A stretch of DNA of 64,000 nucleotides from Escherichia phage EcSzw-2. The stretch lies in sequence record MH791400.1; one strand, given 5' to 3'. Shown one piece after another: positions 6,378-51,849 of the stretch. Below the pieces are notes generated by a model. That model was not told the origin of the DNA and searched no databases. It saw only the letters and a program-made list of their open reading frames with translations. The translations under genes were made by a program, and so were the position numbers. Within the stretch, counting starts at the first letter, position 1, and each line of letters opens with the position of its first letter.

Positions 6378-7104
6378 CCCCTTTTAACCAATTCTTCAGG
6401 TTATTTGCATCATAGTTCAGTTTCGGGTATGAGGTCACATGGAACTTCTCACCGTCATAGTAAACAATATCTGCAAGCCATAATCCGTTTTCTCGGCAGA
6501 AGTCTTTGTCTGCTTTTGAACTGATTGGTCGAACTTCTGTGAAGTCACTCAATCCAAGGTCTTTCAAACTTCCTACAAGACCTTTACAGATAACGCATGT
6601 GTCAGATGTTACCACGAATAATTCTTTGCTTTCAAGTTCCGCAATGAACTCTGCAAGCTGTACTTTAGGAAGATTAGACTGCTTCATAACCTTCTTATCA
6701 GACTCACGGATAATGGCGTACCATTCTTTTCCATCAATCATTGAGGCACGTACATGACATTCATCACCAGTATACTTCTCGATATCTGCAAGACGCTTCA
6801 AAGCTTCTTCGTAGTTATCGGTATACTTCAGGTTGTTATTCTCACAGACTGCTTTCATAGCTCCGTCATGGTCATGCTGTGAAAGGTAAATCAGTCCATC
6901 AAGAACATACTGTAAATCCGCCTGAGCATCAAGAGCCTCAATAGGGTCTTTTTCATCAACAGCTTTTAAAAGCTCTTTGGCCTCTTCTAACATACAAAGT
7001 GCTTGGCTACGCATTGAAGACCAGTACTCAGGTGTATAAGGAGTCAACGGGGTTTTACCACAACGCTGATTCCAAGTTAAAACGGATTCTCTGGAATTAA
7101 ACAT
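6349..7104 (-). CDS. hypothetical protein (251 aa); possible MazG-like NTP-pyrophosphohydrolase-type helical N-domain plus C-terminal CxxC region
   Basis: N-half has EExxE/D-rich helices (LEEAKELLKAVDE...EALDAQADLQYVLDG) reminiscent of MazG/dCTPase-like domains; C-half has CVICKG. Assignment is tentative. Confidence 0.35.
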   Translation of the reverse strand: MFNSRESVLTWNQRCGKTPLTPYTPEYWSSMRSQALCMLEEAKELLKAVDEKDPIEALDAQADLQYVLDGLIYLSQHDHDGAMKAVCENNNLKYTDNYEEALKRLADIEKYTGDECHVRASMIDGKEWYAIIRESDKKVMKQSNLPKVQLAEFIAELESKELFVVTSDTCVICKGLVGSLKDLGLSDFTEVRPISSKADKDFCRENGLWLADIVYYDGEKFHVTSYPKLNYDANNLKNWLKGVGYNGFTEH

Positions 7105-7331
7105 TAAACCTCCTGAAACAGTTTCTGCTGAGACTCAATATAATCCAGTCGGCCTTTCAGTTCAACACGTTTGTTAATCAGGTGCTGAATCTGGGACTCA
7201 AGAGCCTCCATTTCGGACTCCGTAGCTTCTTTAGCTTTGACAATTGCATCTTTCAGTGCTGCAATGTGACTGTCAATCTTAGCTACGTGGTCATTATTAA
7301 TTTTGTTAAATATCATCTTATTCTCTCTCAT
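7104..7331 (-). CDS. small coiled-coil hypothetical protein (75 aa)
   Basis: ORF track; heptad-like charged sequence. Confidence 0.3.
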   Translation of the reverse strand: MRENKMIFNKINNDHVAKIDSHIAALKDAIVKAKEATESEMEALESQIQHLINKRVELKGRLDYIESQQKLFQEV

Positions 7332-10253: not shown

Positions 10254-10472
10254 TCTTAAATCCTCTTTCTCAAAATTATTTCTTTCAAACTTGAAGGAGT
10301 ACAATCTTACAGACTTCATACTCCCTTGTCAAACACTTTTAAGCAGATTTTTTAGCTGCTTTACGTGCTGTCTTACCAGTGCGAACACGTTTTGCTTCGT
10401 AGTGTGCAGCAGATTTACCAGCAGTTGCTTTCAGTGAATCGCCAAATACTTTTTCAAACGCTTTAGAATGTT

Positions 10473-14521: not shown

Positions 14522-14944
14522 TTAATTCTCTCTCATTTTGTTAAGTGTTTGTCGTGATAACTTTAAGCTTTCTGTAGAGGAAAAGTCAAGAACTTTTTCA
14601 GACCTTGGGAAGTAATGTCTATCCCATGAACTTTCTACATCGCTAATCAGTGTTGCTAGGTTATCTAAGTCTGTTCCGTTTTGCAACTTCTTTTTTAAAG
14701 AATCTATCAAGAAGAGTGTATCTTTAGCTTTACGCCTCTCAGCCGATATCTCCTTCATATGCTCAAAGACTGAACATTTCATTCTTTCGTCGTAACCTTC
14801 GGAGAGTTCAATCTCATGTTGAACATCAACCATTCGACGATGATGGTAAGCGTATTCTTTTTGAGCAGCAATGTCAAGTTCTTCCAACTTTTTTAAAGCT
14901 CTCATGAAGTCAGCTATGTCTGGGTGAACAAACATTCTCTGCAT
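14522..14944 (-). CDS. hypothetical protein (140 aa)
   Basis: ORF track; first gene downstream of divergent control region. Confidence 0.45.
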   Translation of the reverse strand: MQRMFVHPDIADFMRALKKLEELDIAAQKEYAYHHRRMVDVQHEIELSEGYDERMKCSVFEHMKEISAERRKAKDTLFLIDSLKKKLQNGTDLDNLATLISDVESSWDRHYFPRSEKVLDFSSTESLKLSRQTLNKMREN

Positions 14945-15125
14945 AATGCCCTCTTTTAAGTACCTATTAAACTTAATCTGTTTTCTTTACGTATTCTATA
15001 CGTATAACTTTAAAGCTTCTTAAAAGCTATTAAAAATCTTTTAAGGGTTTTAAAGAAACTGTATAGTTAATCTGTAAAGGGAGTCTTTTAAGTTAAAACC
15101 CACTTCGCAAAGATTAACACCTTGT

Positions 15126-15146
15126 CAAGTGAATTGTCAACTTGCT
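15126..15146. promoter_or_regulatory. tandem TTGTCAAG / TTGTCAAC motif (12-bp register) in divergent control region
   Basis: CTTGTCAAGTgaaTTGTCAACttg; near-identical element at 55922-55943; reads TTGACA on the minus strand. Confidence 0.4.
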
Positions 15147-15201
15147 TTTTGAAACTTTTTGCAGTAATGTATTGAGTCAATGATTTTGAGAGGGAGTAAA
15201 A

Positions 15202-17901
15202 ATGGAAAACGTAGATTTTGAAAACTTGCACTTGGTAGGTGATACCGAAACTGATGGGTTACTCCTTGAGTTCACAAAAGCACACGTAATGGCATTTGCA
15301 GATTACAAAGATGACAGTGACGAACCTGCTGTGTGGGTCTTCACCGATGAACCTATTCTTGGTCACAAATGCACTAAGTATATTAAAGGTGGTCTTCGTG
15401 AAGGTGTAGAGTTTGCTCTTAAGGCAAAGCGTCTCTGCATTCATAACGGTCTTGGCTATGACTGGTGGGTGTTCAATCACATTGCACCGGACTTATGGAA
15501 CTTTGACAATCCAAAGTGTAAACCTTGGGGAGACTTCTTTCAGGATTCTCTTATCCAGTCTCGTGTTCAGTGGATGGATAGACCTACACCGAAAGGTTAT
15601 AAAGGTGCTCATGGTTTGGCTGCGTGGGGTGCTCGTGTTGGTGTTCGTAAACCAGAGATTGAAGAATGGGGTGTTTGGAATGCTGATATTCTGAACCGTG
15701 TTGTTGAGGATATTCGAATCAACGCCAAAACTAAACGTGCTCTTGATAACGAATACCTGAAGTTGAAGAAGTGTGGTGTAGATACTTACGAAACCTACAT
15801 GCGAGCTAAAGAAACATCTTTCTGGATGAGTCAGCAAGCTATCAACGGTTGGAAAGCTGATATTGAACTTATGCAGTTCCATGTCAAAGAACTTGACAGA
15901 ATGACTGATGAGTTAGCTGCTGAAGTTGAGCCTCATCTGCCACCGACTATCAAGACGAAAGGTAAAGTCACTGGTGAAGAGTTTGCAAAAGCTTGGAACG
16001 AGTATGTTGAGACATTTGGTAAAGCAGATGGTCTGAAGCGCATCACTAAGTATCCAAAAACTAAGTTCCGTCAGCAGGTTCGTAATGGTGAGATGCAGAC
16101 TTACGCTATCAAACCTTTTGGTAAACCAACTACCAAGATTTTCAACATTGAGAAGCGTAACTGCTACACTCCAACTAACACGGTTACTGGAGAAGAGTAC
16201 AAAGAAGGCTTCGTGGCAATGAAAGATGCTCGTGCAGTTTGTAACAAGTTGAATGCTGCGATTGATAAGAAGTGCAAAGACTGGAAACCAGTTAAGACCG
16301 TGAAGACTGTGAAGTACTACAATAATCACGTAGTAAATCACTTTGAACTTGAGTCAAGTCGTTACACAGGTTTGATTGATGCACCTTATACACCAATTGA
16401 GTTCGAAGTTTCACGCATGACTCAGGTTGCGGTTGTGAAGGATTATCTGAAAACTCTTGGCTGGATTCCTGATGACTGGAACTACAAGAAAGATTCTGAT
16501 GGTCGTCCGGTGAAGGTTTGTCGCTTCAAAGATAACAAGAAGATGATTCGTAAACATCCGAAATGGCAAGAGATGGTAGACCGTTGCGGATTGAATTACG
16601 TTGAGCATGAAGGTGTACAGTACATCGAACACAACTGGTCTGTGAAGAAGTACACAGATTTGCTTGAACCTTGCTTGATTCGTACTTCACCGAAACTGAC
16701 TGAATCTTCTTACGATACGATTGAAGGTGAACTTGGACAGAAGATTGCGAAGTACTATACTTTGATGCACCGACGCAGAACTATCGAGAACTCAAAGGAT
16801 GATGAAAAGGGTTGGTTAAACCAGATTCGTCCAGATGGTCGTTTGAGTGCTGGTGCAATGGTGTTTGGTACTTCAACTGGACGTATGACACAATACGGAA
16901 TTGTGAACGTACCTTCTGGGGCTGCTGTTTACGGTGAACCAATGAGGGCAGTCTGGATTTGTGAAGAAGGAGCCAACGTAGTCTCCGTTGATATGAACTC
17001 TGCACAGCTTGTTCTACTGTGTAACTTTATGGGTGATAAAGAGTTCACAAAAGCGGTAACTCAGGGTAAAGAAGAGATTGAGTTTATCCGTCAGGAAGAT
17101 GGCAGATACTACTGCAAACACTTTGACGAATACCTGAATCCAGAAGTTGATAAGTATCTGCGTTATGACTCTGAAAACGACTTGTACGTAGTTTACTCAG
17201 GTACTGATGCGCATACACTGAACAGTATCTACTTCAGCTTGAACGAAGAACAAGATATCCTGACTTGTCGTATGACTCAGGATGAGAATCTTCTTCACGA
17301 AATCAGTAAAGGCCGTAAGAAAGCTAAGAACGGTATCTATGCGTTACTGTTCGGTGCTGGCGATGAGAAGTTTGCTAAGACGATTAAAGCTGCGACTACT
17401 CAGGAAGGTGCATTGACTAAACAGACTTACTTTGTTCGCTTGCCGAAGATTAAGAAACTGTTAGATGACTTGGAAGCTGACTTTAAAGCGACTAAGAAAG
17501 CACTTGAAGAGGTGTTTGGTAAGACTGCTGCAATTGCTAAAGGTGGTTTTGTCAAGGTTGCTGGAGCATGGTTGTGGTGTAAGTCTCCACACAAACTGTT
17601 GAACTACTTGCTGATGGGTTCAGAAGCACAAGTTCAGAATGAAGCAATCAACCTTGCATGTCGTCGTATGATTGATGAAGGTTTGATGAAGTTGAATGGT
17701 CGTAAGCCAGCTATCGGTGCTCGTTTACTTTGTGCATATCACGATGAAACAAGTTGGGAATGTCCAGAGAGCATGACAGCAGAAGTTAAGGCTGTAACTG
17801 ACTGGTACTACGGACAAGCTTCTAAGAACTTAGGGCTTCGTAAAGAAACTCTGGTAACAGGGACTGGTAAAGTTGGTAAGTCTTGGTTGGAAGTTCACTA
17901 A
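15202..17901 (+). CDS. DNA polymerase, family A (T7 gp5-like) with 3'-5' exonuclease domain
   Basis: 899 aa; Exo motifs VGDTETDGL and HNGLGYDWWVF; YTPIEFEVSRMTQ..., GTSTGRMTQYGIVNVPSG, YALLFGAGDEK and YHDETSWEC parallel T7 DNA polymerase motifs as I recall them. Confidence 0.9.
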   Translation: MENVDFENLHLVGDTETDGLLLEFTKAHVMAFADYKDDSDEPAVWVFTDEPILGHKCTKYIKGGLREGVEFALKAKRLCIHNGLGYDWWVFNHIAPDLWNFDNPKCKPWGDFFQDSLIQSRVQWMDRPTPKGYKGAHGLAAWGARVGVRKPEIEEWGVWNADILNRVVEDIRINAKTKRALDNEYLKLKKCGVDTYETYMRAKETSFWMSQQAINGWKADIELMQFHVKELDRMTDELAAEVEPHLPPTIKTKGKVTGEEFAKAWNEYVETFGKADGLKRITKYPKTKFRQQVRNGEMQTYAIKPFGKPTTKIFNIEKRNCYTPTNTVTGEEYKEGFVAMKDARAVCNKLNAAIDKKCKDWKPVKTVKTVKYYNNHVVNHFELESSRYTGLIDAPYTPIEFEVSRMTQVAVVKDYLKTLGWIPDDWNYKKDSDGRPVKVCRFKDNKKMIRKHPKWQEMVDRCGLNYVEHEGVQYIEHNWSVKKYTDLLEPCLIRTSPKLTESSYDTIEGELGQKIAKYYTLMHRRRTIENSKDDEKGWLNQIRPDGRLSAGAMVFGTSTGRMTQYGIVNVPSGAAVYGEPMRAVWICEEGANVVSVDMNSAQLVLLCNFMGDKEFTKAVTQGKEEIEFIRQEDGRYYCKHFDEYLNPEVDKYLRYDSENDLYVVYSGTDAHTLNSIYFSLNEEQDILTCRMTQDENLLHEISKGRKKAKNGIYALLFGAGDEKFAKTIKAATTQEGALTKQTYFVRLPKIKKLLDDLEADFKATKKALEEVFGKTAAIAKGGFVKVAGAWLWCKSPHKLLNYLLMGSEAQVQNEAINLACRRMIDEGLMKLNGRKPAIGARLLCAYHDETSWECPESMTAEVKAVTDWYYGQASKNLGLRKETLVTGTGKVGKSWLEVH

Positions 17902-20356: not shown

Positions 20357-20560
20357 ATGAAGAAGAATCATTGCAAGAAGAACTATGGAGAAGTGCTTGA
20401 CGACGAAGGTCATGTCATCTTCCGAGTTTACTGTGCAGATGACTCTGAAGTAGGTAAAGCACTTGATGACTATATCAATGGTACTCGTGAAAACGTCAGA
20501 GCAACAAACATAGATTCATTGATTGACACTTCCAGAAAACGGAGGAAGAAGGATGAATGA
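20357..20560 (+). CDS. hypothetical protein (67 aa)
   Basis: ORF track; translation checked codon by codon against the sequence. Confidence 0.4.
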   Translation: MKKNHCKKNYGEVLDDEGHVIFRVYCADDSEVGKALDDYINGTRENVRATNIDSLIDTSRKRRKKDE

Positions 20561-20852
20561 AGTCTTTGACCCTTACGCCCCACAAGATAAGTGGGAAGCT
20601 GATAGAGAGTATGAGATGGAAAGTTATATCTGTCCAATGGATGTAGACGAAATGAGAGAGTTCGTTGCATTCCGTTTTGAAAAAGAAATTGAGAAAAGAA
20701 AACTTTCTCAGGCACAAGTTGCAAAAATTTGTGATATCTCTCAAAGTCGTGTTTCCAACATTGTCAATGGTACTGGAAAGATTACCCTTGAATACATGTT
20801 GAAAGCTTGTGAAAAACTTGGTGTTAACTTCAACTTAAGGCTGTCAGATTAA
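20553..20852 (+). CDS. HTH (XRE/Cro-type) DNA-binding protein; start at MNEVFD inside the TTG-initiated track ORF
   Basis: C-terminal helix-turn-helix (LSQAQVAKICDISQSRVSNIVNG); GGAGGAAGAAGG SD before ATG at 20553. Confidence 0.55.
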   Translation: MNEVFDPYAPQDKWEADREYEMESYICPMDVDEMREFVAFRFEKEIEKRKLSQAQVAKICDISQSRVSNIVNGTGKITLEYMLKACEKLGVNFNLRLSD

Positions 20853-21213: not shown

Positions 21214-21698
21214 AAATTGACTTGTTCTTTGGATACAATCTGATGACAGGGTGTATGCTTAGTCTTCCAAAGTCTCCTTATCGTACTGAGAAGGGTGCTG
21301 TGAAACGTGCTGCACACTACAATAATGACTTAGGTCGTTTGCAGACGATTTACAAGTGGCTTGAAGAAGATGGTCGAGTAAATGAGTACTTCCATCAGCT
21401 TCGTATGGCTAACGAAGAAAATAAGATGGGCTATGAACTGTTCCCACGTCTTTACAAAGTGACTTCACCAACTTCTCAAACTTGGAATGAGAAATCTATT
21501 GAGGGTTACAAAAAGGTCACAATGTCTCCGTTTAGTAGTGGTGCAGAGTTTGAGAAGCTACGTGAGATAATTTATCAGACTGTTGCAAAGCGTGTTGCAA
21601 AGGGTCTTTCTTATAATGAAAAGATTGACTGGAACACTCAAAAGGTTATACAATTCTTTGCATACGATAATGACAAACAAACTTTTGTAGAGGTTTAA
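21198..21698 (+). CDS. hypothetical protein (166 aa)
   Basis: ORF track. Confidence 0.4.
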   Translation: MSLPVKIDLFFGYNLMTGCMLSLPKSPYRTEKGAVKRAAHYNNDLGRLQTIYKWLEEDGRVNEYFHQLRMANEENKMGYELFPRLYKVTSPTSQTWNEKSIEGYKKVTMSPFSSGAEFEKLREIIYQTVAKRVAKGLSYNEKIDWNTQKVIQFFAYDNDKQTFVEV

Positions 21699-51611: not shown

Positions 51612-51624
51612 CCTAATAAGACTT

Positions 51625-51707
51625 TGGCATGGGACGGAGGATTCGAACCCCTTTGAGTAAGTTTTGGAGGCTTACGCTCATGCCTTAGAGTCTTAACATC
51701 GTCCCAT
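51625..51707 (-). tRNA. atypical tRNA, probably tRNA-Trp (anticodon CCA), with about 7 extra nt between acceptor and D-stem
   Basis: Perfect acceptor AUGGGAC/GUCCCAU, T-arm AGGGGUUCGAAUCCUCC, anticodon loop CUCCAAA as in E. coli tRNA-Trp, but 5' region longer than canonical. Confidence 0.4.
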
Positions 51708-51849
51708 ACTACAATTCGAAGCTTACCGTATTATCACAACACTGTAAAGCCCCTTCTCAGATTTTTTACATGTTCTGGAAAACATGAGATACAGACCACC
51801 TCCATACAGGAAGACCCGCTAAGGTCGTCTAAGTAATCTGCTAACTATT

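Follow-up and report, generated by a model that had tools for sequence, protein, structure and literature searches.

We analyzed 64,000 nucleotides (nt) of Escherichia phage EcSzw-2 (MH791400.1; hereafter the window), in which a TTGTCAA motif occurs in tandem near 15.1 kb and 55.9 kb and recurs near 53.8 kb. This phage is a Felix O1-like myovirus (Ounavirinae, Suspvirus), and the window is 100% identical to EcSzw_1 (MH791413.1), the record whose coordinates are used for all record positions below (window position = record position − 22185). Leftward genes end at 14944 and are followed by rightward genes from 15202, beginning with that of the DNA polymerase; a second leftward block (23964-55792) comprises holin, tail, head and terminase genes, 24 tRNAs and gp111-113, and rightward genes start again from 56040. 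From this gene layout, the 15.1 kb and 55.9 kb sites sit in both major divergent control regions. The 53.8 kb site is located 52 nt upstream of the first tRNA in the leftward array.

The shared motif and its conservation

All of the sequences on which the original prediction of a shared motif was based were found in the window. The 15.1 kb tandem reads CTTGTCAAGTGAATTGTCAAC (15121-15141, about 5 nt from the start at 15126 assigned to it before) and is accompanied by AACTTTTTGCAGT at 15153-15165; the 55.9 kb copy is CTTGTCAAGTCATTTGTCAACAACTTTTTCAGT (55922-55954) and the third copy is GGTTGTCAAGAACTTTTTT (53805-53823). The AT-rich repeats said to accompany them are also present, namely CTTCTTAAAAG at 15016-15026 and 55810-55820, and GAGTCTTTTAAGT at 15081-15093 and 55880-55892. 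The likeness between the two control-region copies, which had been described as near identity, is beyond chance: the window contains the 20-mer TTGTCAAGTNNNTTGTCAAC twice without mismatch and four times with ≤3 mismatches, the latter compared with a mean of 0.49 in shuffled sequences, none of which reached four (0/100). Similarly, the pattern TTGTCAAS-N15-TTTTT matched twice in the window and never in the shuffles. The bare 7-mer TTGTCAA is not over-represented across the window (27 occurrences, 22.9 expected). Pairwise alignment of the two control regions gave three common blocks (GACTTCTTAAAAG, GAGTCTTTTAAGT and CTTGTCAAGTnAnTTGTCAAC) in the same order and with similar spacing, and the common string AACTTTTT(G)CAGT is, in reverse complement, an A-tract resembling an upstream (UP) promoter element.

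About 250 genomes of Felixounavirus, Mooglevirus and Suspvirus show 82-98% identity across both control regions, and relatives from Erwinia, Pectobacterium and Hafnia could be aligned in coding DNA only. Footprints were derived from 9 sequences at 15.1 kb and 13 distinct sequences at 55.9 kb. In the former set, AAAAAGCAAG-TTGACA-A-nnn-ACTTGACA-rGGTGkTArTCTT is invariant save at the marked positions; in the latter, (G/C)TTGACA is followed by five variable bases, TTGACA, A-s-n, TG and TA-r-n-n-T. Read on the minus strand, the three sites contain the following putative elements:

15141-15165, minus strand: UP-like A-tracts ACTGCAAAAAGTTTCAAAAAGCAAG, the reverse complement of AACTTTTTGCAGT; the proximal tract AAAAAGCAAG is invariant and the distal tract variable
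15135-15140, minus strand: −35 hexamer 1, TTGACA, in the gp62/DNA polymerase divergent region; invariant in 9 relatives and 18 nt from TAATCT
15123-15128, minus strand: hexamer 2, TTGACA, within the spacer at about −23 to −18; invariant in 9 relatives, with 3 nt between the hexamers that vary
15111-15119, minus strand: extended −10 formed by TGt (15119-15117) and TAATCT (15116-15111); TAATCT or TAGTCT in relatives, with T1, A2 and T6 invariant
55942-55955, minus strand: proximal UP-like A-tract ACTGAAAAAGTTG
55936-55941, minus strand: −35 hexamer 1, TTGACA, ahead of gp113 (DUF5681 gene); orthologous to P41, a promoter predicted in Felix O1
55924-55929, minus strand: hexamer 2, TTGACA, within the spacer; invariant in 13 sequences, with 5 nt between the hexamers that vary freely
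55913-55918, minus strand: −10 TAGCCT, 17 nt from hexamer 1; TAGCCT, TAGGCT, TAAGTT or TAGTGT in relatives, with T1, A2 and T6 invariant
53784-53838, minus strand: tRNA-array promoter with UP element (53838-53814), TTGACA (53813-53808), an 18-nt spacer and TGt plus TAAAGT (53792-53784); tRNA-Pro starts at 53756

Probable minus-strand promoter architecture

The −35 hexamer is a perfect TTGACA (6/6) at all three sites (15140-15135, 55941-55936 and 53813-53808) and is invariant in relatives. It had been considered that consistent −10 elements were not obvious; weak ones do exist, however, namely TGtTAATCT at 15.1 kb, TAGCCT at 55.9 kb and TGtTAAAGT at 53.8 kb. Each of them has A2 and T6 and lies 17 ± 1 nt from the −35 hexamer (18, 17 and 18 nt, respectively), with a weak overall match to the consensus (3-4/6). 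The tRNA promoter, with 10/12 hexamer matches together with the TG, is near-identical in Felix O1 and in vB_EcoM_ASO1A (MZ726791; hereafter ASO1A). We also scored the A/T-rich tracts at −59 to −38 against the 14-position UP consensus NNAAAWWTWTTTTNNNAAANNN, which reportedly goes back to Estrem et al. (1998). The scores were 14/14 at 53.8 kb, 10/14 at 15.1 kb and 9/14 at 55.9 kb, compared with a non-coding background of 6.2 ± 1.7, in which 3.8% of positions score ≥10. These A-tracts resemble UP elements and, by this resemblance, may be docking sites for the C-terminal domain of the polymerase alpha subunit (alpha-CTD).

After the genome and its annotation had been rebuilt, every TTGACA in non-coding DNA (9.3% of the genome) was listed. 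A total of 21 of the 108 copies in the whole genome are non-coding (10 expected), as are 14 of the 68 in the window, where non-coding DNA accounts for 6.7% (4.6 expected). The enrichment is confined to non-coding DNA. All 21 non-coding copies are oriented like the gene that follows them: 18 are minus-strand copies within leftward blocks and three are plus-strand copies within rightward blocks. Of those inside genes, by comparison, 63% are in sense orientation (P ~6e-5 for 21/21). Moreover, the composite pattern TTGACN-N16-18-TANNNT occurs at 18 non-coding sites (4.7 expected), all co-directional with the downstream gene (18/18) and with the 15.1 kb, 55.9 kb and 53.8 kb sites among them; their −10 boxes include TAGAAT, TAAGAT, TATACT, TATAGT, TATGAT and, twice, TAAAGT, and most of them have A-tracts 3-6 nt upstream of the hexamer.

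Spacing and geometry also speak for minus-strand promoters. The distance from hexamer 1 to the −10 is constant at 17-18 nt across four loci or lineages, and the motif keeps a constant position relative to the minus-strand elements at all loci, whereas its position relative to the plus-strand promoters differs between loci. In distant relatives, the DNA polymerase divergent region has a single leftward hexamer (TTGACA-17-TAGGCT in Arno162 and TTGACA-18-TACATT in phiEa104). With a co-directional hexamer, an A-tract upstream, TAnnnT 17-18 nt downstream and conservation across genera, the suggestion that the motif represents minus-strand TTGACA −35 hexamers holds up well, and these hexamers are probably recognized as parts of sigma-70 promoters by the unmodified host RNA polymerase. 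The sequence architecture, orientation, enrichment and conservation of the sites are directly observed; from them we infer initiation itself, with leftward starts near 15104-15105 and, as predicted from the −10, near 55906.

In the proposed arrangement, one or two phased UP-like A-tracts would be followed by (C/G)TTGACA, a spacer of 17-18 nt and a weak TAnnnT, which an upstream TG may assist at 15.1 kb and 53.8 kb. The 15.1 kb promoter would drive the leftward block for replication and nucleotide metabolism, the 55.9 kb promoter the leftward unit of gp113, gp112 and gp111, and the rrnB-P1-like promoter at 53.8 kb the tRNA array, with putative rightward promoters abutting the leftward ones in both divergent regions. 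Stable-RNA promoters of the rrnB P1 type in Escherichia coli carry a UP element and have a 16-nt spacer. The 53.8 kb copy resembles them in preceding a stable-RNA (tRNA) operon and in its 14/14 UP match directly upstream of the −35, but differs in its 18-nt spacer and in its −10, TAAAGT with an upstream TG. In the tRNA array itself, three gaps (51612-51976, 52614-53038 and 53117-53280) contain T-arm-like or acceptor-like strings, such as GGTTCGAATCCTCCGTCCCATGCCA and GGTTCGACTCCTACC, that were not called by ARAGORN and may be degenerate, split or unusual tRNA genes; ASO1A carries tRNA-Glu and tRNA-Tyr genes that are uncalled in EcSzw_1. A further feature lies just upstream of the array:

53882-53913, minus strand: terminator hairpin ending the upstream gene; contains a fourth TTGTCAA (53899-53905) and also reads TTGACA, 17 nt, TAATAT

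This hairpin, which follows the gene at 53924-55195, is one element readable as terminator and promoter alike. It corresponds to terminator t42 of Felix O1, where terminators are listed on both strands (PMC3185647).

Some of the simple promoters have additional features. A third small divergent region (L001:6787-6899), beside a lone plus-strand early gene (record 6900-7208), has a leftward TTGACC-17-TAGTAT with a UP match of 13/14; neither a second hexamer nor a CTTAAAAG box is present in it. At several other promoters (window 10254-10338; L001:12689-12767 and 21538-21602), a stem-loop lies in or across the spacer, for example TTGACA-GGGGCTgaaaAGCCCC-T-TAGAAT at record 12760, and some overlap a terminator (record 21598). 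These spacer stem-loops recall the 'promoter-early stem-loop' cassettes of T4-type phages.

Several points weigh against an interpretation as ordinary sigma-70 promoters. TAATCT and TAGCCT match only three of six consensus positions each and are poor −10 elements; a simple promoter scan called no promoter at 15.1 kb; and the TG at 55.9 kb directly adjoins the −10 instead of lying one base upstream, which makes the extended −10 non-canonical. Intergenic conservation among close relatives is 80-90%, which caps the resolution of the footprints. The spacer, which should vary in a plain promoter, varies in its first 3-5 bases, but hexamer 2 and the following AGGTG or AGCTG are conserved, so that something beyond sigma-70 recognition probably constrains these sites. 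Our literature search found no transcription start mapping for any Ounavirinae phage. Reverse-transcription PCR of Felix O1 detected ORF 96 (open reading frame of the rightward DNA polymerase in the 15.1 kb-type region) within 5 min, and found ORFs 41, 42, 96, 97 and 98, which flank both regions, to be maximal at 25 min (PMC3185647). That the genes directly downstream peak at 25 min and not at 5 min is a further difficulty; at its low resolution, the pattern fits promoters that are on early and stay on.

The motif might instead act on the plus strand, either as a TTGTCA-type −35 (as in rrnB P1) or, upstream of the rightward DNA polymerase and gp114 promoters, as a site for an activator or the alpha-CTD:

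15142-15170, plus strand: candidate DNA polymerase promoter TTGCTT, 17 nt, TAATGT (ATG at 15202), back-to-back with the leftward promoter
55966-55994, plus strand: candidate gp114 promoter TTGACT, 17 nt, TACCAT (ATG at 56040), invariant in relatives, as is the whole surrounding stretch

The former has the pattern of a textbook promoter in the 9 sequences, with an invariant TTGCTT, a −10 of TAATGT, TAGGGT or TAGTGT and a variable spacer. TTGTCA matches the −35 consensus at 5/6 positions, and the scan returned TTGTCA(55935)-17-AATAGT with an upstream TG. In addition, the 15.1 kb boxes lie at about −40 and −52 of TTGCTT-17-TAATGT, within the range of alpha-CTD and class I activators. However, neither TTGTCA at 15.1 kb has a −10 at 16-18 nt, so that a plus-strand −35 fails there; the offsets differ between the regions (about −40/−52 at 15.1 kb and about −63/−75 relative to TTGACT-17-TACCAT at 55.9 kb); there is no gene on the plus strand on which the 53.8 kb and record 1767 copies could act; and the TTGACA orientation always follows the downstream gene genome-wide. 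A plus-strand role is accordingly very unlikely. The Pho box of PhoB consists of CTGTCAT direct repeats with an 11-bp period that replace the −35. The plus-strand motif is similar in that it repeats directly, with TGTCA cores spaced by roughly one helical turn, but it was rejected as a Pho box: in EcSzw_1 the repeats have a period of 12-13 bp, no −10 follows about 10 nt on along the plus strand, and the 53.8 kb and 1.7 kb copies are without a plus-strand target. Likenesses to CRP, IHF and sigma-32 sites, compared by eye with their consensuses, were also discarded for wrong spacing or missing half-sites.

Doubled hexamers and boxed leaders

Besides the two tandems in the window, a third tandem promoter was found outside it at record 1767 (the 1.7 kb locus), where TTGACG, N7 and TTGACA are associated with a −10 TACATT 17 nt from the first hexamer; its ASO1A orthologue has TTGACA, N7, TTGACA and TAACTT. 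In Hafnia phage SarahDanielle, TTGACA, N5, TTGACA and TACTCT precede the DUF5681 gene, in surroundings that are unalignable. Hexamer 2 shifts by ±1 within the fixed spacing (N7/N4, N6/N5, N6/N6 and N5/N6), and no TAnnnT lies 15-18 nt beyond it at 15.1 kb, 55.9 kb or 1.7 kb. Since the spacing from hexamer 1 to the −10 is fixed and hexamer 2 has no −10, hexamer 1 would be the working −35. Hexamer 2 was rejected in this role; the N15 AATACT chosen in the ASO1A annotation is not conserved in EcSzw_1. On the alignments, hexamer 2 is an element in its own right, maintained by selection at about −23 to −18. Downstream of the tandems, both window loci have predicted leaders with recurrent boxes:

14945-15105, minus strand: AT-rich (73%) untranslated leader of the predicted leftward transcript, 161 nt, with eight CTNTANAG-type boxes
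15081-15093, minus strand: leader box ACTTAAAAGACTC at about +12 to +24, at the same distance as at 55.9 kb and in the Hafnia phage
55880-55892, minus strand: leader box ACTTAAAAGACTC flanked by the inverted repeat TTAGAAGA / TCTTCTAA
55813-55829, no strand assigned: 17-bp palindrome CTTAAAAG-G-CTTTTAAG, invariant and just upstream of the gp113 ribosome-binding site

The leader box ACTTAAAAGA(C/T)TC (CTAAAAGG at the 1.7 kb locus) begins 47-50 nt after the start of hexamer 1, at about +13, and is identical in the Hafnia phage (TTACTTAAAAGACTCTTCT). The leaders of the tandem class are about 113-161 nt long and 66-73% AT, whereas 10 of the 12 other promoters ahead of protein-coding genes have leaders of 20-43 nt (163 nt for that at 6531; that at 74473 was not measured). 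A dyad box pair stands at the end of both window leaders, which at 15.1 kb consists of CTTAAAAG (15019-15026)-N11-CTTTTAAG (15038-15045); such dyad-symmetric pairs, CTTAAAAG-N1/N11-CTTTTAAG, are distinct from the tandem hexamers. In the genome, CTTTTAAG / CTTAAAAG occurs 26 times (~5 expected from base composition), with 17/26 copies in non-coding DNA, for the most part at the left genome end and downstream of the three tandem promoters, within their leaders. In phiEa21-4, a related CTTAAAAGcCTTTAAAG dyad pair lies upstream of the promoter, not downstream, which favours a DNA-level role of the boxes. On this sequence evidence, the promoters at 15.1 kb, 55.9 kb and record 1767 constitute a sub-class defined by a spacer TTGACA, a ACTTAAAAGA box and a long AT-rich leader.

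For an RNA-structure interpretation of the leaders, the results were mixed. Rfam gave no match other than tRNA, the folding z-scores are weak (−0.74 at 15 kb and −2.35 at 55 kb), and a stem around the box is inconsistent: only two of the 55 kb loci (EcSzw_1 and Sf14) and the 1.7 kb locus have one that is better than with shuffled flanks. Within the 55.9 kb leader, the perfect inverted repeat CAGATATC-tttctg-GATATCTATCT (55848-55870) is invariant in 13 relatives and contributes most of the predicted folding energy.

The original prediction had proposed binding sites for a phage regulator or a modified polymerase. Neither is needed for hexamer 1 or the tRNA copy, and this part of the proposal is possible only for hexamer 2 and the CTTAAAAG boxes. 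On this reading, the tandem TTGTCAA would mainly be an operator at which a phage DNA-binding protein, such as that encoded at 20553-20852, represses or activates both divergent promoters through two direct-repeat half-sites one helical turn apart, and the likeness to a −35 would be incidental or exploited against sigma-70. Despite its place in the spacer, hexamer 2 varies no more than hexamer 1, while its flanks do vary; the 11-13 bp period places both copies on one helix face; and wherever the tandem occurs, at three loci per genome as well as in the Hafnia phage, CTTAAAAG boxes and a long leader accompany it. The phage does encode a candidate, since the protein at 20553-20852 is an XRE/Cro-type helix-turn-helix (HTH) protein (Pfam HTH_3, E = 6.5e-12) with sub-threshold similarity to sigma-70 region 4, and the timing of Felix O1 transcription has been called unknown (PMC3185647). 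On the other hand, the tRNA copy and ~15 other promoters share the hexamer, A-tract and −10 without a tandem partner. The conserved core of hexamer 2 is CTTGACA, which is the extended −35 consensus; the two boxes are direct repeats, and Sf14 (at its 55 kb locus), L010, the Hafnia phage and the 1.7 kb locus have not retained the 9-bp palindrome CTTGACAAG, which weighs against a dyad operator. A total of 258 records of Felixounavirus, Mooglevirus and Suspvirus contain a homologue of the HTH protein; in phages of Hafnia and Erwinia, none reaches E ≤ 1e-5. As the Hafnia phage has the tandem-plus-box module without a detectable HTH homologue, the protein tracks the module imperfectly, and the case for it as the cognate regulator is weakened. 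We consider an operator of this kind unlikely.

The T7 primary origin has two tandem promoters followed by an AT-rich segment. By analogy, the tandem promoter and its boxed AT-rich leader could be a transcription-activated replication origin, with the CTNTANAG boxes acting as iteron-like elements. The phage has a T7-like replisome (a family A polymerase and a gp4-type primase-helicase), one module adjoins replication genes, and the AT-rich leaders are ORF-free in a compact genome; CTNTWNAG arrays phased at 10-11 bp are also found at the left genome end. However, the spacing of the leader boxes is irregular (11-44 nt), the phiEa21-4 box lies on the other side of its promoter, the tRNA promoter has the same promoter features without boxes, and promoter function alone suffices. 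An origin at these sites seems very unlikely.

The left-end arrays lie within ~1 kb of gene-free DNA (L001:343-800) and are composed of CTTTTAAG, CTGTATAG, CTTTACAG, CTTTATAG and CTTTAAAG, with boxes at record positions 343/353/363/374, 412/422/432/443 and 583/594/605 and many TAACA(A/G) repeats further left. The arrangement suggests an array for protein binding, possibly in packaging, replication or the protection of the genome end. In the early region (L001:1300-6900), 12 copies of TCCTAAACTGGAGATTCAA stand directly before early-gene start codons, and eight or nine of these copies follow a GGGGCTTA...TAAGCCCC hairpin and AGATAAAGAGCTTT. The repeated intergenic cassette is the counterpart of the 57-bp direct repeats described for Felix O1 (PMC3185647). 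No relatives of the gene at record 1401-1598, which lies downstream of the third tandem locus, turned up in IMG/VR.

Returning to host-type promoters carrying additional elements, our best guess is that hexamer 2 and the box are control sites through which a phage factor would shut down or readjust these promoters once the early phase is over. It is possible, and we put it forward tentatively, that the tandem promoters, the ACTTAAAAGA box and the leaders form a dedicated phage regulatory module, whose phage-encoded factor would recognize the TTGACA in the spacer, the CTTAAAAG boxes or both, either in the DNA or in the nascent RNA.

Relation to known promoters and significance

T5 and T7 (A1-A3) have strong early promoters served by the host RNA polymerase. 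The sites described here are similar in that a consensus-like −35 and A-rich upstream tracts would capture host sigma-70 polymerase where early transcription units begin, but the T5 and T7 early promoters have good −10 elements and are not known to have a second −35 hexamer in the spacer.

Felix O1 has no RNA polymerase gene, nor a gene for any known modifier of promoter specificity (PMC3185647). Five host-type promoters have been predicted in it, including P41, TTGACA(N15)TATAGG, in the ORF 40-41 region, and no promoter was found in the ORF 96-97 region, which is orthologous to 15.1 kb (Whichard et al. 2010, PMC3185647). The 55.9 kb site is orthologous to P41, with which it shares hexamer 1. 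In ASO1A, 'TTGACA(N15-18)TATAAT' promoters are annotated at the orthologues of both the 55.9 kb and 1.7 kb sites. These annotations of Felix O1 and ASO1A, made independently, support host-type promoters at these hexamers; they select other −10 boxes (N15), which are not conserved in EcSzw_1. Other genome papers predict 16-42 host promoters but do not describe them in detail. The Felix O1 paper, the ASO1A annotation and the other genome papers searched are all silent on the doubled hexamer, the UP-like tracts and the leader box, and on the likeness between the control regions.

Taken as promoters, the sites are likely to be of the ordinary host type, one of which (P41) was already predicted in Felix O1. 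The analysis assigns promoters to both main strand-switch regions, one of them the DNA polymerase region, for which earlier work had found none, and to the tRNA array. Felix O1-like phages, which have neither an RNA polymerase nor a recognised sigma modifier, are widely used for typing and biocontrol of Salmonella and E. coli. The practical value is modest, consisting of better annotation and defined targets for mutagenesis or for the engineering of strong phage promoters. The temporal regulation of Felix O1 and its passage through many terminators are not understood (PMC3185647). If the regulatory module suggested above is real, its factor could retime or shut off the leftward units, or enable read-through of terminators, and thereby provide the missing temporal control of Felix O1. 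The two extra conserved elements of this promoter class are obvious places to seek the early-to-middle switch.

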